A stretch of 20,878 nucleotides of DNA, taken from positions 24,197 to 45,074 of the forward strand of contig JBHEMM010000019.1 in the NCBI GenBank assembly GCA_046262595.1, given 5' to 3'. The notes below the pieces were generated by a model. The model did no database searches. It was given only the letters and a program-made list of their open reading frames with translations, and was not told the DNA's origin. Positions 373 through 8,376 of this stretch are shown here, in pieces. The DNA is from Vulcanimicrobiaceae bacterium. Lineage in GTDB: Bacteria; Vulcanimicrobiota; Vulcanimicrobiia; Vulcanimicrobiales; Vulcanimicrobiaceae. Numbering within the stretch: position 1 is the first letter of the stretch; each line of letters begins with the position of its first letter. Made by a program: the position numbers and the translations under genes.

Positions 373-2871
373 ATGTCAATGTGGGAACCGTTCACCGAAC
401 GCGCGCGGCGCAGCATCGTGCTGGCACAAGAAGAAGCGCAACGCTTGGGGAACAACTACATCGGAACCGAGCACATTCTGCTCGGGATTATCTCCGAGGG
501 CGAGAGCCTTGCCGCCAAAGTGCTCGAGACGCTGGGCGTCAATCTGGCCAAAGTACGCCAAGAAGTCGAAGCGATTGTCGGCCGCGGCGGACAGACGGTT
601 CAGCAAGAGATGGTCTTCACGCCCCGCGCCAAGCGCGTCATCGAACTGGCTTTTGAAGAAGCGCGTCAGCTCAATCACAATTATATCGGTACCGAGCATC
701 TGCTCTTGGGCCTGATCCGCGAGGGCGAAGGCGTGGCAGCGCGCGTGCTCACGAATTTGGGCGTCGATCCTGCAAAAGTGCGCGTGCAAACCACCTCGCT
801 GCTGGGCGCCGAAGGGCAGCCTCCGGCACCAAAAGGCAAGAGCAAGACGCCGACGCTCGACGCGTACGGCCGCGATCTCACGCAGCTCGCGAGGGAGAAT
901 AAACTCGATCCCGTCATTGGGCGGGCTTCCGAAATCGAGCGCGTCATCCAGATTCTCTCGCGGCGTACGAAGAACAATCCCGCGCTCATCGGTGAACCGG
1001 GCGTCGGCAAAACGGCGATCGCCGAAGGTCTCGCGCAACGCGTCATCAAGGGTGACATCCCCGAGCCGCTGCGCGACAAACGCGTAATCACGCTCGATTT
1101 GGCGGGCCTGGTCGCCGGCACGAAGTACCGCGGCGAGTTCGAAGAACGCATGAAGCGCGTGATGGATGAAATCCGCGCCGCCGCGGGCGAAATCATCCTC
1201 TTCATCGACGAACTGCATACGCTCGTCGGAGCGGGCGCCGCCGAAGGCGCCATCGACGCGAGCAACATCATCAAACCCGCGCTCGCGCGCGGCGAGCTGC
1301 AATGCATCGGCGCGACGACGCTGAATGAATTCCGCAAGCATATCGAAAAAGACTCGGCGCTGGAGCGGCGGTTCCAGCCGGTGATGGTCGGCGAACCGTC
1401 GTTAGAGGAAACGGTCGAGATTCTCAAGGGTCTGCGCGACCGCTACGAAGCGCATCACAAAGTGCAGATTACCGATGAAGCGCTGGCAGCCGCGGCGAAA
1501 CTGGGCGACCGGTACATCACCGATCGTTTCTTGCCCGACAAAGCGGTCGATCTGATCGACGAGGCGGCCTCGCGCGTGCGCCTGCAGGCAACGCTGCCGC
1601 CGCAAGAGATTCGCGATATCGACGCTCAACTGCGCAAAGTCATCGTTGAAAAAGAAGCGGTCGTAAAATCGCAAGAGTTCGACAAAGCTGCCGAGCTGCG
1701 CGACCGCGAAGAGAAGATCCGCCTCGAAAAAGCGCGCCTCGAAAAAGAGTGGCAAGACAAGCGCGCGCAAAGCGACAAGGTGATCAAAGTCACGGAAGAA
1801 GATATCGCGTACATCGTTTCGTCGTGGACCAAGATTCCGGTGAGCCGCCTGGCTCAGGCCGAAACGCAGAAGCTGCTGAACATGGCCGAATCGCTGCACA
1901 AACGCGTTGTCGGCCAGGAAGAAGCAATCAACGTGATCGTGCGCGCCATCCGCCGCTCGCGCGCCGGCTTGAAGAATCCGAACCGGCCTATCGGCTCGTT
2001 CATGTTTCTGGGCCCGACGGGCGTGGGCAAGACGGAAGTCGCGCGCAGCGTGGCGGAGTTCTTGTTCGACGATTCGGATTCGATGGTCCGCATCGACATG
2101 TCGGAATACATGGAGAAGTATGCCGTCTCACGTCTGGTCGGCGCACCTCCGGGATACGTCGGCTATGAAGAAGGCGGCCAGCTCACCGAAGCCGTGCGCC
2201 GGCGTCCGTACGCCGTCGTGCTGCTCGACGAAGTGGAAAAAGCGCATCCGGACGTGTTTAACCTGCTGCTGCAGGTCCTCGACGACGGACGCCTGACGGA
2301 TTCACAAGGGCGCCAGGTCGACTTCAAAAACGCCGTGATCATTATGACGTCGAACGTCGGCGCCACCGGCATGCAGACGACGAGTGACATCGGTTTCCGC
2401 ACCAGCAAGACGACGGACGAGGATGAAGCGCGTCAGTACGAGCGCATGAAGAACAAAGTGCTCGAAGAAGTCAAGCATACGTTCCGGCCGGAGTTTCTCA
2501 ACCGCTTGGATGAAGTGGTCGTTTTTCATCAACTTACGCGCCCGCAGATCGAAGAGATTGTGGGCCTGGAGCTCGAGAAAGTCATGCGCGAGGTCAAGGC
2601 GCAAGACATGCATCTCGAAGTCACCGAAGAAGCCAAAGCGCTGCTTGCGAAAAAAGGCTGGGACCCGCAGTACGGCGCGCGTCCGCTGCGCCGGGCGATT
2701 CAGCGCGAAGTGGAAGACGAGCTTGCCGAAGAGATGCTGCGCGGCCGCTTCGGCCCCGGAGCCCGCATTTTGGCGGAAGTCGACCCCGGCAACCCGGAGA
2801 AGCTGCGCTTCAGCAAAATACCGGGCATCGAACCGCCTGCGGCGCCGCAGCCCGAACACGCGACGAACTGA
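373..2871 (+). CDS. clpC: ATP-dependent Clp protease ATP-binding subunit ClpC
   Basis: 832 aa. Double Clp-N repeat, Walker A GEPGVGKT and GPTGVGKT, Walker B ILFIDE and VLLDEVE, a short UVR-type middle domain ([13 protein letters not shown]) and the ClpP-docking IGF loop. RBS AAGGA upstream. Confidence 0.96.
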
Positions 2872-3331: not shown

Positions 3332-6202
3332 ATGCATCAGATCGCGCTGCTTCTTTCGCTCGTCACCTCGGCGATGTTCTCGCATTTAGACTTTCGCAAC
3401 ATCGGACCGCTGCCCGGACGCATCGATACGGTTTCGGGCGTTTCGGGCGATCCGCGTGTTTACTACGGCGGCGGTCTGGGCGGTCTGTTCAAAAGCAGCG
3501 ACGGCGGCGTTTCGTGGGAACCGGTTTTTCATCAGCAGTCGGTCAGTTCGATCGGCGCGGTTGCGGTTGCACCGTCGGATCCTTCGATCGTTTACGCCGG
3601 AACGGGCGAACCGAATCTGCGCAACGACGTCGCCTTCGGCAACGGCGTGTACAAGTCGAGCGACGCAGGCGCAACGTGGCAGCACGTCGGCTTGGATGCG
3701 AGCGGTTCGGTTGCGCGCATCGCGATCGATCCTGTTGATCCGCAGCGCGTCTTTGTGGCGGTCTCGGGCGATTTCTACGCTGCGAACGGCGAGCGGGGTA
3801 TCTTTAAGACAACCGACGGCGGCACGACCTGGCGCAAGGTGCTCTCCTCCGGCGAACGCACCGGCGCCTCGTCCGTCGCAATCGATCCGCGCGATCCCAA
3901 GCACCTGATCGCCGGCATGTGGGAGGCATGGCGCACGCCGTATCATCTCAACAGCGGCGGCAAAGACGACGGTTTATACGCGTCCTCCGACGGCGGCGAA
4001 CATTGGGCGCGTCTGCAAGGCAACGGACTGCCGGGCGGCACCATGGGCCGCATCGACGTGCGCTTCGCGCCCGGAAATCCCAAACGCGTGTACGCGCTGA
4101 TCGAGTCGAATGAGGGGACGCTTTGGCGCAGCGACGACGGCGGTAAAACATGGGCGGTGATCAACACAAGTCACGGTATCGATCAGCGTCCGTTTTACTT
4201 CACCACGATGGCGGTCGATCCGAAAGACGAGAATCACCTGTTCTTCATGTCGGTGCAGATGTGGGAGTCCAAAGACGGCGGCAAAACGGCGAAAACGTTG
4301 CGCGGCACGCGCGGGGGAGACTACCACGCCCTCTGGATCGACCCGCAGGATCCGCATCGCATGGTTGCGGGCGATGACGGCGGCATCCAGTACACCGTCG
4401 GCGCGCCCAAAGGCTGGACCAGCGCGGCGGTTGCCGTATCGCAGCCGTACCACGTGGATACCGACAACCGCGTTCCGTACACGGTGTGCGCGGAAACGCA
4501 AGATTCGGGCAGCGCGTGCGGTTCGAGTACGAACACGGCATCGAACCGCGGCGATTGGTTTTATGCGGGCGGCGGCGAGAGCGGATGGATCGTGTTCGAT
4601 CGCGGGAACTCGAATCTCATCTACGGCGACGGCTACCAGGGCGCCCTCACGGAATACGACCGCCGCACGGATCAGGCGCGTGCTATCGACGTATGGCCGG
4701 AGGATGCGATGGGTTGGGCGGCCGCGGCTCTGAAGTACCGCTTCCAATGGACTTCGCCGCTGGCAGTGAGCGCGCATCACGCTCACCGCCTGTTTATGGG
4801 CGGCAATAAAGTGTTCGCAACGGACGACGGCGGCCAGCATTGGCGCGCGATCAGCGGCGATCTCACCCGAAATGCGAAGCAGTTTGAGCAGTTTTCCGGA
4901 GGTCTGACGCGCGATAACACCAGCGTCGAATACTACGACACGGTTTTCAGCATTGCCGAGTCGCCGCTGCGCGCGGGCACGTTGTGGGCCGGCACCGACG
5001 ACGGGTATGTGTGGGTGACCCGCGACGAAGGCGCCCATTGGAACAACGTGACGCCGGCCGCAATGCGGGCTGACGCGCCCGGCGCGTGGGGCCGCGTGGA
5101 TGGCGTCGCGCCGTCGCCGTTCGACCCGGCGGTCGCATACATGACGGCGGATTATCACAAGTCGGGCAGCCGCGTTCCGCACTTGTATCGCACGGCAGAC
5201 TACGGGCGCACGTGGACCGCGATCGCGCAAACGCTTCCGCAGGACAGCTACGCGCGTATGGTCCGGCCCGATCCCGTGCGCCGCGGCATGTTGTACGCGG
5301 GAACAGAAACCGGCCTGTGGCTTTCATACGACGACGGCGCGCATTGGATGGCGCTAAACACGAATCTGCCCACCGCTCCCGTGTACGACTTTCACGTTCA
5401 GCGCCAATTCGATGACCTCGTGGTTGCAACGCACGGCCGCGGCATCTGGATATTGGACAATCTGCACGCCTTGCAGGAGTTGAATGATGCCGCCGCCGCG
5501 CAGCCGCTGCATCTGTTCACGCTGCGTCCTGCGTACCGTTCCGTGAGCGGTCAAGAAGCGCTGATCGACTTCTTCCTTAAGCAGCCGCCCGCGAGCGGCG
5601 GCGTACGCGTCGAAGTTTTGCAGGACGGGCGCGTGATCCGCACGCTTGCGGTGGAGAAGCCCGCGGCGGGCATCAACCGGGTGCGTTGGAATCTGCAATA
5701 CGAAGATCTCAAGCCGGTGAAAAACTACGTACCGTGGGGATCCGGCGGCTTCGACGGTCCGGCAGTGCTGCCGGGAAGGTACACGGTGCGCGTGACGGCG
5801 GGCGGCATCTCGCGCACGGGGAGCCTGCAAGTGCGGCTCGACCCTCGCGTACACGTCGCAGCAACGGCGCTGCGCGAGCAGTTGACGTTCATTCAGCGCG
5901 CCCGGGGCGACCTGTCCTCCCTTACCGCGCTCATCAACCGCCTCAATGTTCTCAAAGCGAAAAACGGCCGCAACGCGGCAAAGATCGATGCCTTGCTGCA
6001 CCGCATCTACGAGCCCGAGGTCACGGAAGGCGAGGATGCGCTTCGCTACCCGCAGCAAGTGTACGGCAAGATTGCCTACCTGGCCGGAAACGCCGGCGCG
6101 AGCGATGCGCGCCCTACGGCGTCCGACTATGCCGTGCTCAACGCGCTCGAAACGCGCGCGCGCGCGCTCGAACGGGAAGCCCGGTCGCTGACCACGCCGT
6201 GA
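3332..6202 (+). CDS. Secreted BNR/Asp-box (VPS10/sortilin-like) beta-propeller glycosyl hydrolase-like protein
   Basis: 956 aa. Many S/T-x-D-G-G-x-x-W Asp-box repeats, the family motifs FRNIGP, YAGTGE, QRPFYF and ATHGRGIWI, a hydrophobic N-terminus, and a C-terminal Ig-like (PGRYTVRV) plus helical region. Confidence 0.85.
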   Translation: MHQIALLLSLVTSAMFSHLDFRNIGPLPGRIDTVSGVSGDPRVYYGGGLGGLFKSSDGGVSWEPVFHQQSVSSIGAVAVAPSDPSIVYAGTGEPNLRNDVAFGNGVYKSSDAGATWQHVGLDASGSVARIAIDPVDPQRVFVAVSGDFYAANGERGIFKTTDGGTTWRKVLSSGERTGASSVAIDPRDPKHLIAGMWEAWRTPYHLNSGGKDDGLYASSDGGEHWARLQGNGLPGGTMGRIDVRFAPGNPKRVYALIESNEGTLWRSDDGGKTWAVINTSHGIDQRPFYFTTMAVDPKDENHLFFMSVQMWESKDGGKTAKTLRGTRGGDYHALWIDPQDPHRMVAGDDGGIQYTVGAPKGWTSAAVAVSQPYHVDTDNRVPYTVCAETQDSGSACGSSTNTASNRGDWFYAGGGESGWIVFDRGNSNLIYGDGYQGALTEYDRRTDQARAIDVWPEDAMGWAAAALKYRFQWTSPLAVSAHHAHRLFMGGNKVFATDDGGQHWRAISGDLTRNAKQFEQFSGGLTRDNTSVEYYDTVFSIAESPLRAGTLWAGTDDGYVWVTRDEGAHWNNVTPAAMRADAPGAWGRVDGVAPSPFDPAVAYMTADYHKSGSRVPHLYRTADYGRTWTAIAQTLPQDSYARMVRPDPVRRGMLYAGTETGLWLSYDDGAHWMALNTNLPTAPVYDFHVQRQFDDLVVATHGRGIWILDNLHALQELNDAAAAQPLHLFTLRPAYRSVSGQEALIDFFLKQPPASGGVRVEVLQDGRVIRTLAVEKPAAGINRVRWNLQYEDLKPVKNYVPWGSGGFDGPAVLPGRYTVRVTAGGISRTGSLQVRLDPRVHVAATALREQLTFIQRARGDLSSLTALINRLNVLKAKNGRNAAKIDALLHRIYEPEVTEGEDALRYPQQVYGKIAYLAGNAGASDARPTASDYAVLNALETRARALEREARSLTTP

Positions 6203-6211
6203 CGGGGCCGC

Positions 6212-6264
6212 TTGATGACTCCTTGATGGCAGAGGAGCGTGATTTTTGATGACATTTTTATGGC
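6212..6264. repeat. 19-bp imperfect direct repeat upstream of the WYL gene; candidate operator
   Basis: TTGATGACTCCTTGATGGC (6212-6230) and TTGATGACATTTTTATGGC (6246-6264), 15/19 identical. Confidence 0.5.
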
Positions 6265-6281
6265 CGGGGACCGGCGCATAG

Positions 6282-6296
6282 TGCCACAATTGTGGT
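6282..6296 (+). promoter_or_regulatory. Extended -10 promoter giving a leaderless WYL mRNA, overlapped by a 12-bp palindrome
   Basis: TGc-CACAAT (6282-6290), then 6 nt, then ATG 6297, with no Shine-Dalgarno. CCACAATTGTGG (6284-6295) is a perfect palindrome. Confidence 0.55.
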
Positions 6297-7292
6297 ATGG
6301 AACGCACGAACGAGCCGAAGATTGTGTTGCTGGTCCGGCTGCTCAACGCGATTGACGAAGGCCGCTTTTCGTTCGAAGAACTTAAAGACCGCATTGCCGA
6401 GGGAGAACACAAGCCGAGCACGCGCAGCCTGCGCCGCTATTTGGCAGTGCTTGCGGACGCGGGCTTCCCGTGGTACTTCGATCGCGCCACCAACACGTAC
6501 CGGTTTACCGAAGGTTACAGCCTCAAACGCCTGGAGCTCAACAGCAGCGAACTGTTCGGTCTGGTCGCGCTGCGCGCCATCAGCGCCAGTTTGAAGGGCG
6601 CCATCGGCACGTACGTTGACGAAGTGACCGCCAAGATCGTTGGCTCGAGCGGCAGCGGGGCGAAGGAACGGTTGCAGGCGCCCTCGCCGGTCGCGTTCCG
6701 CCTGAGCGAGATCGCGCTGGATGTGCAGGGAGAACAGATATTCAGCCGTCTCTCCTCGGCCGAACGCAGTTCGCGCAGTGTGCGGTTCCAATACCAGGAC
6801 AAAGAAGGCAATACGTCCACGCGCACGGCCGACCCCTACGGCTTTGTCGTGGGCGGCGGACGCGTGTACTGCGTGGCGCACGATCGCGACCGGCGCGGCA
6901 TGCGGACGTTCGCGGTCGACAACATGACCGACCTCACGGTGCTGGCGCAGACGTTTACCAAGCCGCAAAATTTCAGCGTCGAAGACTTTGCCTCGAGCTC
7001 GATCAGCGGCGTGCTGCACAGTTCGCAAACCGCGGAAGTGCGCGTGCGGTTCGCACCGCGCGTCGCGAAGGCGGCAATCGCCGCGCGCGTCGTGGCGGAT
7101 CGCGCCGTGAGCCGATCGGCCGACGGTTCGGTCGAGATAACGTACACCGTCGCGGACGTTGACGAACTGACGCGCTGGGTTTTGGGTTGGGGCGCACAGG
7201 CCGAGATCGTGGCGCCGGCGGAAGCACGCGCCAAAGTCCAGATGCTCATCTCCGAGATCGCGACGAAGTACGAACTTCCGGTCTCGCGCTAA
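6297..7292 (+). CDS. HTH-WYL-WCX transcriptional regulator (YafY/PafBC/DriD-like)
   Basis: 331 aa. N-terminal winged HTH (FSFEELK...STRSLRRYLAVLADAGFP), WYL domain (VRFQY...RTADPYGF...VYCVAHD...RTFAVDNM) and WCX C-terminus (WVLGWGAQAEIVAP). Confidence 0.9.
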   Translation: MERTNEPKIVLLVRLLNAIDEGRFSFEELKDRIAEGEHKPSTRSLRRYLAVLADAGFPWYFDRATNTYRFTEGYSLKRLELNSSELFGLVALRAISASLKGAIGTYVDEVTAKIVGSSGSGAKERLQAPSPVAFRLSEIALDVQGEQIFSRLSSAERSSRSVRFQYQDKEGNTSTRTADPYGFVVGGGRVYCVAHDRDRRGMRTFAVDNMTDLTVLAQTFTKPQNFSVEDFASSSISGVLHSSQTAEVRVRFAPRVAKAAIAARVVADRAVSRSADGSVEITYTVADVDELTRWVLGWGAQAEIVAPAEARAKVQMLISEIATKYELPVSR

Positions 7293-7305
7293 ACGGACAT
7301 ACATC

Positions 7306-7339
7306 AAAAACCCCGATGACTTTTACGTCACCGGGGTTT
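7306..7339 (-). terminator. Intrinsic terminator of ncRNA-A, possibly bidirectional with the WYL gene
   Basis: Minus strand CCCCGGUGAC-GUAAAA-GUCAUCGGGG followed by UUUUU. The G-U pair forms only on the minus strand. Confidence 0.8.
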
Positions 7340-7501
7340 GAACGTATTCGCCGGTTTGCGCCTGTCAGAATTCCGGTAAAAGAAATCGACTGACGCCGCC
7401 GTACGTTTGGCCGGCTCACTCGGGACCGCGGCTTTCACCGCTGTCCGTCAACATGTTCCGGTTGCGGCTTTTACGTTTGCCGCCCTTCAATCGCTTGAAG
7501 T
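7306..7501 (-). ncRNA. Putative structured ncRNA-A (~196 nt), paralog of 7657-7857
   Basis: Bounded by a promoter and a terminator. Hairpins CUUCAA-GCGA-UUGAAG, GCGGC/GCCGC and a GAAA-capped stem. Shares ordered motifs with ncRNA-B. No conserved ORF. Confidence 0.75.
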
Positions 7502-7507
7502 TCTTGC

Positions 7508-7536
7508 ATGGTATCATCCGGAAAATCACTTTGCAA
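7508..7536 (-). promoter_or_regulatory. Sigma70-type promoter of ncRNA-A
   Basis: Minus strand TTGCAA (7536-7531)-N17-TACCAT (7513-7508) with an extended-10 TG. Predicted +1 is A7501. Confidence 0.8.
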
Positions 7537-7549
7537 GAGCGCGATGCAG

Positions 7550-7658
7550 CGACTCACAGCATATGCACAAAAACTTTCAGTTGTTCGCCGTTTGTGCACT
7601 CGGCGGAGCGCGCTCCTCAATTCGCGATTACTCACACGTTGTGCACGCAGGTGCATAA
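7550..7658. promoter_or_regulatory. DnaA-box-like cluster upstream of the ncRNA-A promoter
   Basis: Against TTWTNCACA: ATATGCACA 7561 (1 mismatch), TTACTCACA 7628 (1), TTGTGCACG 7639 (2), reverse TTATGCACC 7650-7658 (1), TTGTGCACT 7592 (2), CGACTCACA 7550 (3). Several are spaced 11 bp apart. Confidence 0.55.
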
Positions 7659-7695
7659 AAAAACAGAAGCCCCGAATGTTCATCCGGAGCTTCCG
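7657..7695 (-). terminator. Intrinsic terminator of ncRNA-B
   Basis: Minus strand CGGAAGCUCCGGAU-GAAC-AUUCGGGGCUUCUG followed by UUUUUUU. G-U pairs fix the minus orientation. Confidence 0.85.
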
Positions 7696-7857
7696 GCGTA
7701 TGTCTTTCTCGCTCGTGCCTGTTTGGCTCCGGTGAAGAAACCCTACTGACCACCGCTTGAAAGTCCGGCCGTTTCACTCGTATCGCCGTCATGCGGCTGC
7801 ATCGTCAACATGGCCCGGCCGCGACGACACGTTCGCCGCACTTCGTTTCATCGAAGT
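7657..7857 (-). ncRNA. Putative structured ncRNA-B (~201 nt), paralog of 7306-7501
   Basis: Bounded by a promoter and a terminator. Hairpins ACUUCG/CGAAGU and GCGGCGA/UCGUCGC. Shares CAUGUUGACG, CGAGUGA, GUCAGU, UUUCUU..ACCGGA, ACAGGC and AUACG with ncRNA-A in the same order. Confidence 0.75.
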
Positions 7858-7863
7858 GTCTGA

Positions 7864-7892
7864 ATGGTAGCACCGTACAAATGTCGTAGCAA
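7864..7892 (-). promoter_or_regulatory. Sigma70-type promoter of ncRNA-B
   Basis: Minus strand TTGCTA (7892-7887)-N17-TACCAT (7869-7864) with an extended-10 TG. Predicted +1 is A7857. Confidence 0.8.
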
Positions 7893-7905
7893 GTAGCCGG
7901 GTGCC

Positions 7906-7957
7906 GTTTCCACCGCATTTCCACAAGAAAGACGCGTTATTCACATGGTTATACACC
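7906..7957. promoter_or_regulatory. DnaA-box-like cluster upstream of the ncRNA-B promoter
   Basis: TTATTCACA 7937-7945 (perfect TTWTNCACA), ATTTCCACA 7917 (1 mismatch), TTATACACC 7949 (1), GTTTCCACC 7906 (2). Confidence 0.6.
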
Positions 7958-8376
7958 TGCTTGCTCTGTTGCTCGCTCAAAGCATGTTCGCCGGTCTTCC
8001 TGTCGACGGTATCCGATGCGATTCGATGGAAGGTGCGCTCGAACACATCCACGCGCATTTGAAAATTACGGATGGCGGCCGCGCGCTGGAAATCCCCTCG
8101 GGCATCGGGATTCCGCAGGGCGGCCAGTGCCTGTACTGGCTGCATACGCATTCGTCCGACGGCCTCGTGCACATCGAGTCGCCGCTGAAGAAGACGTTTA
8201 GGCTGGGGCAATTCTTCGACATCTGGGGGGAGCCGCTGAGCCGCACGCAGGCCGCAGGAGCGCATGCGTCGCGAGGCCACGCGCTGCGCGTGACCGTCAA
8301 CGGAAAAGCCTGGAAAGGCGACCCGCGCACCATTCCGTTACGTGACCATGAGGAGATCGTCATCAACGGCTCATAA
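7945..8376 (+). CDS. Secreted His/Cys-rich hypothetical protein, possibly metal-binding
   Basis: 143 aa. Short signal-like N-terminus and the motifs HIHAHL, IPSGIGI, CLYWLHTH, HIESP and LGQFFDIWG. Ends 9 bp before hutH. Confidence 0.75.
   Translation: MVIHLLALLLAQSMFAGLPVDGIRCDSMEGALEHIHAHLKITDGGRALEIPSGIGIPQGGQCLYWLHTHSSDGLVHIESPLKKTFRLGQFFDIWGEPLSRTQAAGAHASRGHALRVTVNGKAWKGDPRTIPLRDHEEIVINGS

Follow-up and report, generated by a model that had tools for sequence, protein, structure and literature searches.

Tandem structured RNAs of an apparently undescribed Baltobacteraceae family and the predicted DnaA-box arrays upstream of their putative promoters

The window, that is, the whole stretch of DNA analysed here, spans 20,878 nucleotides (nt) of contig JBHEMM010000019.1 (positions 24,197 to 45,074; assembly GCA_046262595.1) from a Vulcanimicrobiaceae bacterium, and it contains genes for a ClpC-like ATPase, a sortilin/BNR protein and a regulator with WYL and WCX domains, followed by a short open reading frame (ORF) and the hut operon. 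Between the regulator gene and the ORF lie two related RNA genes, copy A and copy B, which are predicted on the minus strand and both reach past the range (7343-7857) given in an earlier sequence-only reading of this DNA. We lean slightly towards the view that they encode DnaA-controlled, trans-acting structured small RNAs (sRNAs), two old tandem paralogues of a family that seems to have escaped description. The coordinates of the genes, RNAs, helices and control elements are collected in Table 1.

Table 1. Genes, RNAs and predicted structural and control elements of the locus in window coordinates (R1, score in bits with the six-sequence covariance model; PWM, position weight matrix)
Feature	Position	Strand	Details
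RNA copy B	~7858-7657	minus	~202 nt, inferred start CACUUCG to T7 run; R1 185.8 bits
RNA copy A	~7502-7306	minus	~197 nt; R1 148.5 bits
P1 hairpin of B	7856-7841	minus	CUUCG...CGAAG
P1 hairpin of A	7500-7485	minus	GNRA loop GCGA
P2 hairpin of B	7839-7821	minus	loop CGUGU 7831-7827 = pseudoknot 5' strand
P2 hairpin of A	7483-7464	minus	loop AACGUA 7477-7472
Stem-loop 3 of B	7821-7766	minus	basal CGGCCG/CGGCCG, inner CAU-G-UUG/CGAGUG, tip GCCG-CAUGA-CGGC
Stem-loop 3 of A	7461-7411	minus	basal CCGG/CCGG, tip GCGGU-GAAA-GCCGC (GNRA loop GAAA)
Stem-loop 4 of B	7750-7717	minus	GUCAGU...ACAGGC, A-A mismatch; tip GGUUUC-UUCACC-GGAGCC
Stem-loop 4 of A	7394-7360	minus	
P5 of B, around stem-loop 4	7763-7704	minus	CUUUC 7763-7759 with GAAAG 7708-7704
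P5 of A, weak		minus	CGG 7401-7399 with CCG 7354-7352
Pseudoknot 3' strand of B	7701-7697	minus	AUACG
Pseudoknot 3' strand of A	7346-7341	minus	UACGUU
Promoter of B, predicted	7892-7864	minus	-35 TTGCTA 7892-7887, 17-nt spacer, TGc + -10 TACCAT 7869-7864
Promoter of A, predicted	7536-7508	minus	-35 TTGCAA 7536-7531, 17-nt spacer, TGa + -10 TACCAT 7513-7508
Intrinsic terminator of B, predicted	7695-7657	minus	stem 7695-7664, T7 run 7663-7657
Intrinsic terminator of A, predicted		minus	stem 7339-7308, T5 run 7310-7306; faces WYL gene end
DnaA-box array of B, predicted	7957-7906	minus	all boxes in RNA orientation; PWM 36.9 bits
Array B, distal boxes			GGTGTATAA 7957-7949; TGTGAATAA 7945-7937
Array B, double box, 2-bp gap			TGTGGAAAT 7925-7917 / GGTGGAAAC 7914-7906
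DnaA-box array of A, in B-A spacer, predicted	7658-7550	minus	PWM 39.2 bits
Array A, distal boxes			CGTGCACAA 7646-7638; TGTGAGTAA 7636-7628; AGTGCACAA 7600-7592
Array A, double box			TGTGCATAT 7569-7561 / TGTGAGTCG 7558-7550
Array A, sole opposite-facing box	7650-7658	plus	GGTGCATAA
ClpC-like ATPase	373-2871		
Sortilin/BNR protein gene	3332-6202		between clpC and WYL gene
WYL + WCX regulator gene	6297-7292	plus	convergent with RNAs; Pfam WYL 6.6e-19, WCX 2.5e-16
ORF without family, 143 amino acids	7945-8376	plus	divergent from copy B
hut operon	from 8386		

That the two minus-strand RNAs are related and share one fold, as the sequence-only reading had proposed, is borne out by their alignment (78% mean column identity over 224 columns) and by folding energies better than those of shuffled sequences, the minimum free energy (MFE) z-scores of the two copies being -5.22 (0/200 shuffles as good) and -3.07 (1/200). 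A BLAST search of the window's own genome (G000; 2.42 Mb, 89.7% complete) with copy A returned only copy A itself, copy B being too diverged for BLAST. The statistics of the fold were obtained with 106 distinct homologues on a model-fitted alignment and 500 shuffles, which ignore relatedness, while a structure-blind MAFFT alignment of 105 sequences provided a second, model-free check of the helices; the relatives all belong to one family, are not independent and derive mostly from metagenome bins. RNAalifold recovered P1, P2, the long stem-loop 3 and stem-loop 4 both from six sequences and from the structure-blind alignment. Taken as a whole, the structure is paired in 92.3% of cells, compared with 79.0% in shuffles, and 50 of its 58 pairs change on both sides, a result reached by none of the 500 shuffles.

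The individual helices differ in how they are conserved. P1 is paired in 98.7% of cells with a near-invariant stem (CG 104, UA 104, UA 97 and CG 105 of 105 lettered cells), and P2 in 94.0%, with both-sided changes in four of five pairs, so that the two 5' hairpins proposed earlier are found in both window copies and across the 106 homologues; the GNRA loops noted for copy A, GCGA in P1 and GAAA at the tip of stem-loop 3, are likewise present. The helices of stem-loop 4 (helices 8-10) are 95-98% paired and are recovered by the structure-blind alignment; its tip reads YYCACC in one paralogue group and is a GNRA-like tetraloop in another, and the element is cleanly absent from the copy in G178, an unpublished genome. 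P5, which encloses stem-loop 4, was assessed by duplex energies, the cognate strands giving -8.08 kcal/mol as against -5.77 +/- 0.20 for permuted partners (0/2000 permutations; 101 distinct pairs from 106 copies), and on fixed columns it shows 64 both-sided changed cells, compared with 31.6 in shuffles. Conservation is concentrated in the P1 stem, the basal part of stem-loop 4 (A-A mismatch included), the pseudoknot and a few junction purines (GAAC, GAGUGA), while the loops and stem-loop 3 vary.

The pseudoknot had been put forward as a possible pairing between the P2 loop and the 3' UACG, and this proposal has held up. On the structure-blind MAFFT alignment, the loop ACGUAU and the 3' strand AUACGU are paired in 82.3% of cells (74.8% in shuffles), with 44 both-sided changed cells as opposed to 12.3 and 18 further pair types as opposed to 12.7, none of the three values being reached by any of the 500 shuffles. 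Five of the six pairs change on both sides, slid controls are paired in 13-54% of cells compared with the 82.3%, and the model-fitted alignment gives similar values. The compensations are spread over scattered clades and include GUAA/UUAC, GUAG/CUAC, GUGU/ACAC, GUAC/GUAC and CCGUAA/UUACGG. Judged by this comparative evidence, the RNA is an H-type pseudoknot, in which a hairpin loop pairs with a distal strand, the pairing being supported by compensatory changes. Copy A has a second AACGUAC at 7401-7407, in the segment that joins stem-loop 3 to P5; it is likewise able to pair with the 3' UACGUU, and the MFE fold uses it, so that the pseudoknot has a competing alternative in this copy.

Stem-loop 3 is closed by the box that follows P2, which pairs with the box directly after CGAGUGA. 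Its basal helix is 91.7% paired, and all five pairs change on both sides in the model-fitted alignment; one basal pair occurs as CG 39, UA 36 and UG 13 times in the structure-blind alignment and as CG 42, UA 36 and UG 12 times in the model-fitted one. In two homologues the entire element is, by an alignment-free comparison, a minimal tetraloop hairpin of 4 bp (AGCC-GCAA-GGCU and GGCC-GAGA-GGCC). Across the homologues compared, stem-loop 3 is the most dispensable and evolutionarily plastic part of the family.

The sequence-only reading had drawn this region as a three-way junction, built from a helix of CCGG with the distal CCGG, a UUGAC/GUCAG helix and a second junction hairpin, in which the invariant CAUG and CGAGUGA pointed to a catalytic or ligand-binding core. 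Both window copies can indeed draw these helices, and the bases in question are identical in the two; however, the helices show no covariation beyond shuffles (0.124 versus 0.117, reached by 66/500 shuffles) and are paired in 65.3% of cells compared with 64.0%, on an alignment that favours the rival fold. When CCGG is paired with the proximal CCGG instead, the helix does covary and is also recovered without a model, the whole arm is reduced to the 4-bp hairpin in the two homologues mentioned above, and the homologue in the unpublished genome G178 lacks both GUCAG and the distal CCGG. The minimal stem-loop 3 homologues, the model-free basal helix and the G178 copy do not depend on the fitted alignment. 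In the supported fold, UUUCUU belongs to the tip of stem-loop 4, so that the asymmetric bubble of CAUG opposite UUUCUU is absent. The CAUGUUGAC/CGAGUGA core proved invariant only between the window copies, being found in 41 of 107 copies in relaxed form and in 7 of 107 exactly; its bases fall in stem-loop 3, the inner sequence of which is replaced in most copies, which undercuts the argument from invariant junction bases. A catalytic or ligand-binding core found no support, and a hammerhead or other self-cleaving ribozyme was rejected, as no ribozyme family matched and the core of the family model was unmatched (hammerhead II, 13.9 bits versus a gathering score of 37; expectation value, E, 9.8). 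We give the junction and its proposed core almost no credence.

The extent of the family was established in several steps. An exact pattern, CATGTTGACN{10,40}CGAGTGA, found 12 places in 201 genomes of the order (a few unpublished ones included), four of which were foreign homologues by their flanks (G074, G169, G194 and the unpublished G178), while the matches in G004, G027, G134, G080, G155 and G190 looked like chance or coding sequence and were set aside. The six-sequence model R1 then matched 91 of 151 genomes, representing 45 of 78 genera, of Baltobacteraceae (Eremiobacterota/Vulcanimicrobiota), a tally that includes a few unpublished genomes; most RNA-bearing genomes contain between one and three copies, which are frequently arranged in tandem with a spacing of about 320 nt. 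From 89 sources 107 R1 matches were collected, of which 106 are distinct sequences. A further model, R2, built without the terminator from a structure-blind alignment of 105 cores, matched 54 of 71 Baltobacteraceae genomes and none of 79 genomes from 20 other families of the phylum. Among genomes of named species, a pattern scan yielded 68 loci, 60 of them with a full R2 match; 58 of the 60 carry titles such as Eremiobacterota, Vulcanimicrobiota, Baltobacteraceae, Cybelea, Rubrimentiphilum or Tumulicola, and the eight loci lacking an R2 match (Pseudomonas, Psychrobacter, Dyadobacter and others) were regarded as chance. The remaining two, L117 and L153, are labelled Candidatus Acidiferrales and contain full-length RNAs (116.2 and 131.8 bits); they could reflect mislabelled bins, contamination or transfer. 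With the filters switched off, divergent copies were detected next to the WYL gene in two R1-negative genera (G039, 28.6 bits; G042, 24.6 bits), which means that the 60 negative genomes among the 151 are partly a matter of sensitivity. These observations define an apparently undescribed family of structured RNAs of about 200 nt, with a core of about 165 nt, that is restricted to Baltobacteraceae in the scan of the phylum.

Copies outside the WYL locus occur at 19 loci, 18 of which have enough flank to be judged, and their contexts are unrelated, among them an esterase-like/OPT transporter operon, proline dehydrogenase, MutS/MiaB and CHAD-CYTH. A maximum-likelihood tree places these second-locus copies in a separate group of 21 rows (support 94/91, not starred); copy A belongs to a starred clade (100/99) made up of 14 tandem copies, all downstream members, in six genera, and copy B lies among the upstream copies. 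As the A and B clades are separate and each comprises several genera, the tandem pair is read as an old duplication that has been kept. In the single-contig relatives G149, G070, G062, G069 and G011, the second-locus copy is found 239-323 kb from dnaA (6.6-8.6% of the chromosome) and the WYL-locus copy 0.72-1.6 Mb from it (27-35%), on the opposite side. At one locus, L094 (G065 contig C6:325730-327510), two identical inverted RNAs flank two partial WYL frames near the contig end, an arrangement suggestive of a palindromic duplication or of an artefact of assembly.

Each copy appears to be its own transcription unit. A sigma-70-type promoter of the form TTGnnn-N16-18-TAnnnT ends 3-10 nt before the model start in each of the 106 copies for which 60 nt upstream are available, as opposed to 2 of 2140 random positions, and an extended -10 (TGn) is present in 101 of 106; the promoter of copy B ends 6 nt upstream of the RNA. 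At the other end, both window copies have a G+C-rich terminator hairpin followed by a T run, and across the 106 distinct sequences the terminator helix (helix 11) is 94.8% paired with both-sided changes in 11 of 11 pairs, the T run being found by pattern in 73 of 106 copies. With their own promoter and terminator, and with downstream genes that are convergent or unrelated, the RNAs have the predicted features of independent sRNA genes. Given the compact covarying core together with the separate promoter and terminator, each copy is best described as a transcription unit in its own right and not as a plain cis-antisense transcript, and to that extent the earlier view that these are no simple antisense RNAs is supported.

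The upstream regions are the second conserved component of the family. All clades have in common a module in which GTGnATAAc precedes tTcTTGTGGAnAngtTGTGagt, followed after about 15 nt by the -35 hexamer. The double repeat TG(T/C)G-N7-TGTG occurs in 96 of 106 copies and in 92 of these precedes the start of the RNA by exactly 67-68 nt (control, 26/2118), and further G(T/C)GnnTAA sequences accompany it in 92 of 106 copies (control, 42/2118). Between -120 and -41, the mean number of boxes is 2.87 in the orientation of the RNA and 0.04 in the opposite one, compared with 0.073 per strand in controls; 69 of 105 copies have at least three boxes and 32 have at least four. Read on the other strand, TGTGnATAA is the DnaA box TTATNCACA, and a strict box, TTATTCACA, lies at 7937-7945. 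TTATCCACA is the perfect DnaA box for E. coli, Vibrio, Pseudomonas and Bacillus (PMC4285127), and the DnaA protein of E. coli prefers box pairs 2-3 bp apart (PMC11317965). Clusters were defined as several 9-mers within two mismatches of TTATCCACA, a consensus that comes from other bacteria. By this definition, the module would be a DnaA-box cluster, as it combines repeated 9-mers with pairs in one orientation separated by 2 bp and recurs as the same motif at the organism's own dnaA. In six of six genomes, the region upstream of dnaA contains TGTGGATAA and then AGTG(C/T)ATAA, with TGTGGAnAA pairs further up, and it is because of these shared box types that the module is read as a DnaA-box array. 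A P1-like sequence in the dnaA leader, GAAGAACUUC, was considered as a target and dropped, being present in one genome of six.

Within G000, the arrays stand out from their background. The genome has only eight strict TTATNCACA sites (19.1 expected from its composition), including one upstream of dnaA, on contig C11, and one at 7937-7945; among its 264 relaxed boxes, clusters of at least three within 160 bp are found only in the rpmH-dnaA spacer and in the spacer between RNA B and RNA A. A PWM of the 41-nt module exceeds 12 bits at four places in 2.4 Mb, with the two window arrays scoring highest. The third match (28.8 bits; C31:13951-13991, minus strand) lies at the junction of a MiaB-like and a LytR_cpsA_psr gene, and no RNA-like sequence or promoter follows the module there. 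The fourth (22.4 bits; C29:8019-8059, plus strand; locus L206) occupies the intergenic spacer ahead of minC-minD and is divergent from a gene for an M48 peptidase, with the boxes TGTGGAGAA, GAGGATAA, TTGTGCACC and TGTGGACA; the division-site genes minC-minD may thus share the regulator of the RNAs. The start codon of the ORF at 7945-8376 is located inside the DnaA box at 7945-7937, which makes the divergent control region common to the ORF and RNA B.

The surroundings of the RNAs are themselves conserved. The order WYL, RNA, ORF, hutH is syntenic at the main locus, the RNA adjoining WYL in 64 of 88 related loci, the ORF in 51 and HutH in 55, and ClpC is close to the WYL gene in several relatives. 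The ORF gave no family in Pfam and NCBIfam searches; it is conserved, has a signal-peptide-like N-terminus and lies between the RNA and hutH in the 51 loci just mentioned. The sortilin/BNR gene had no counterpart in the 88 loci, examined over short flanks, and may be an insertion specific to this lineage. In comparisons with PDB, the WYL protein resembles DriD (8tp8, 6.5e-16; residues 84-311, which is not the DNA-binding end) and PafBC (6sj9, 2.2e-09). Its own promoter region (6244-6296) contains the direct repeats TTTTGATGAC / TTTTTATGGCC, seen in relatives as TTTGAkGnC-N-TTTGATGGC and then TGGCACAAT; the palindrome CCACAATTGTGG (6284-6295), which abuts the WYL start codon, was discarded as a candidate element, as it is found in this genome only and the orthologous promoters lack it.

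This neighbourhood raises the question of whether the RNA serves the DriD/PafBC-type regulator encoded beside it as a ligand, decoy or partner, WYL being among the candidate partners named in the sequence-only reading. Of this suggestion, the part that stands is the conserved proximity, the convergent neighbour being retained in the 64 loci at protein identities down to 47% and in two more divergent genera; the part that does not is co-occurrence, since a WYL orthologue is present in 145 of 151 family genomes (a few unpublished ones included) irrespective of whether the RNA is matched. Binding of single-stranded nucleic acid by WYL domains of this family is described in PMC9186387 and PMC11804915, and TACGAC, found in 15 of 16 promoters of the B clade, is half of the DriD site ATACGAC(X)7GTCGTAT as given in PMC10853764. 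In the window, TACGAC (7887-7882) runs from the last base of the -35 hexamer into the spacer; the B-clade promoters in which it occurs are those of L021-L049, and other clades lack it. However, the full DriD palindrome is unenriched in the window (7 matches versus 6.44 expected), the promoter of the WYL gene itself shows other repeats, the 18 second-locus copies have no WYL neighbour, and the whole ClpC-WYL-RNA-hut block is syntenic, so that the linkage may simply be inherited. A role of the RNA in WYL function is accordingly given only a slim chance. Even less is to be expected of a cis-acting leader, that is, a riboswitch or attenuator of the downstream gene, although seven second loci (genera g4, g13 and g20) lie upstream of, and codirectional with, the esterase-like/OPT transporter operon: at the main locus the next gene is convergent, the tandem copies each have a full promoter, and elsewhere the second-locus copies are followed by unrelated genes (MutS, glyoxalase, a zinc-finger protein, YqeY).

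Two further explanations concern the arrays. The upstream repeats could be sites for a dedicated factor other than DnaA, for instance a response regulator of the OmpR/PhoB type, with the RNAs as its output in the way that rsmX/Y/Z are the output of GacA signalling. The head-to-tail arrangement of repeats 11 bp apart just upstream of the -35 hexamer would suit such a factor, as would the near-confinement of the module to RNA genes, with its four matches above 12 bits in the genome. Set against this, the distal boxes match the full 9-mer TGTGnATAA, with G(T/C)GnnTAA enriched over controls as given above, the same 9-mers and pairs recur at the dnaA promoters of six genomes out of six, and the only other cluster of at least three boxes in the genome is the one at dnaA; a dedicated factor is considered unlikely, though its chance is not negligible. 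Alternatively, the loci could be chromosomal elements for DnaA handling, comparable to datA and DARS, the titration and reactivation elements of E. coli, in which transcription through or next to them, or the RNA itself, tunes DnaA, the RNA not being a general regulator. The conserved box clusters and the kept positions relative to dnaA (6.6-8.6%, and 27-35% on the other side) are in keeping with this explanation, but those positions may reflect conserved gene order within one family, the boxes occupy a classic promoter-proximal position, and the RNA body is under strong structural selection that a mere DNA element would not need. We regard it as improbable.

Control by DnaA of a trans-acting RNA, the reading to which we incline, would operate as follows. 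DnaA, probably in the form of an ATP-dependent oligomer with the distal 9-mers as its nucleation site, would occupy the array down to -49, where the double box (about -68 to -49) adjoins the promoter with its extended -10, and would modulate transcription, such that the level of the RNA reports the status of DnaA and of replication initiation. The RNA would then act in trans through its conserved pseudoknotted core, and binding of a protein partner seems more likely than long antisense pairing, this being the weakest step of the scheme. The protein-binding or scaffold role is suggested because the conserved parts are helical, whereas the loops and stem-loop 3 are variable. A bolder extension, speculative and in our estimate doubtful, is a feedback loop in which DnaA-ATP on the arrays sets the RNA and the RNA acts on DnaA, dnaA or minCD, the paralogues at about 7-8% and about 27-35% from dnaA serving as replication-timed dosage sensors, an RNA counterpart of datA/DARS.

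Several points weigh against the DnaA-controlled, trans-acting reading. Both ends of the transcript, and indeed the transcript itself, are predicted from signals in the DNA. DnaA binding is deduced from the motif, which another factor recognizing TGTGnA direct repeats might also use, and since the -35 and extended -10 are already good, either activation or repression by DnaA could be envisaged. The protein-binding step draws on the conservation of helix sequences and on the lack of a conserved single-stranded seed. Of the pseudoknot cells, about 18% are unpaired, the L053 and L057 types being examples that fail, and P5 in copy A has just 3 bp. Finally, 60 of 151 family genomes have no match, and at least two of these contain divergent copies, which implies fast evolution for a core function.

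Eremiobacterota are a widespread soil and peat phylum, and we know of almost no experimental genetics in them, so that a conserved structured RNA in most Baltobacteraceae genomes offers a concrete handle on their regulation. DnaA regulates protein-coding genes; if it also drives these RNAs, the status of replication initiation would be linked to post-transcriptional control, and the loci would constitute a clean system for studying the action of DnaA oligomers on promoters. RNA biology gains a new fold, pseudoknotted and about 165 nt long, for which more than 100 natural variants have been aligned.

Among known RNA classes, Rfam 15 (4227 models) gave no match at gathering scores in the whole window, and in 7200-8000 the best was BTnc005 with 19 bits (gathering score 174.8), the others having E values of 7.7-9.8. 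The RNAs are similar to 6S RNA in length, in their strong promoter and in sometimes having two copies per genome, but 6S RNA is an irregular rod with paired ends and a central bubble, whereas the present fold consists of separate hairpins and a pseudoknot. 6S RNA (RF00013) had no match at the locus and was rejected; full-length 6S candidates were found elsewhere in four relatives (27.8-45.7 bits; gathering score 46.4). The orphan structured RNAs of bacteria, such as raiA, OLE and ROOL, are similarly lineage-restricted, covarying multi-helix folds with a pseudoknot, although the range of the present family is narrower, being a single family. The sRNA paralogue families RsmX/Y/Z-CsrB, GlmY/GlmZ and Qrr1-5 have the same upstream activator site at each member, and the likeness lies in homologous sRNA genes that each possess one near-exclusive upstream module; the present RNAs, by contrast, show no repeated GGA loops on reading, their factor is apparently DnaA, and their core is pseudoknotted.

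The putative control region resembles the DnaA-regulated double-box promoters of E. coli (nrdA, mioC and purH), where TTATCCACA-like pairs 2-3 bp apart lie beside the promoter (PMC11317965). The double box of the present RNAs likewise has a 2-bp gap at a fixed position (92/106 copies); in contrast to the E. coli genes, the product here is a structured noncoding RNA (ncRNA), three to four boxes in the same orientation accompany every paralogue, and the boxes are predicted. CcnA of Caulobacter crescentus is also a stand-alone ncRNA, of 182 nt, located among sites for a master cell-cycle regulator and with DnaA boxes within its gene (PMC8959179). Its gene is part of the replication origin, CtrA is its presumed driver, and its pairing partners are the ctrA and gcrA mRNAs. 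By this description, the RNAs of the present family differ from CcnA in lying 0.24-1.6 Mb from dnaA and in having their DnaA boxes upstream. In the open literature, most subscription journals lying outside it, no DnaA-box-driven structured sRNA family was found described, and nothing relevant was found there on ncRNA in Eremiobacterota or sRNA in Baltobacteraceae, subscription journals again not being covered. Compared with these systems, the fold and the unusual presumed regulator appear to be new, whereas an sRNA gene driven by a regulator is, as such, well known.

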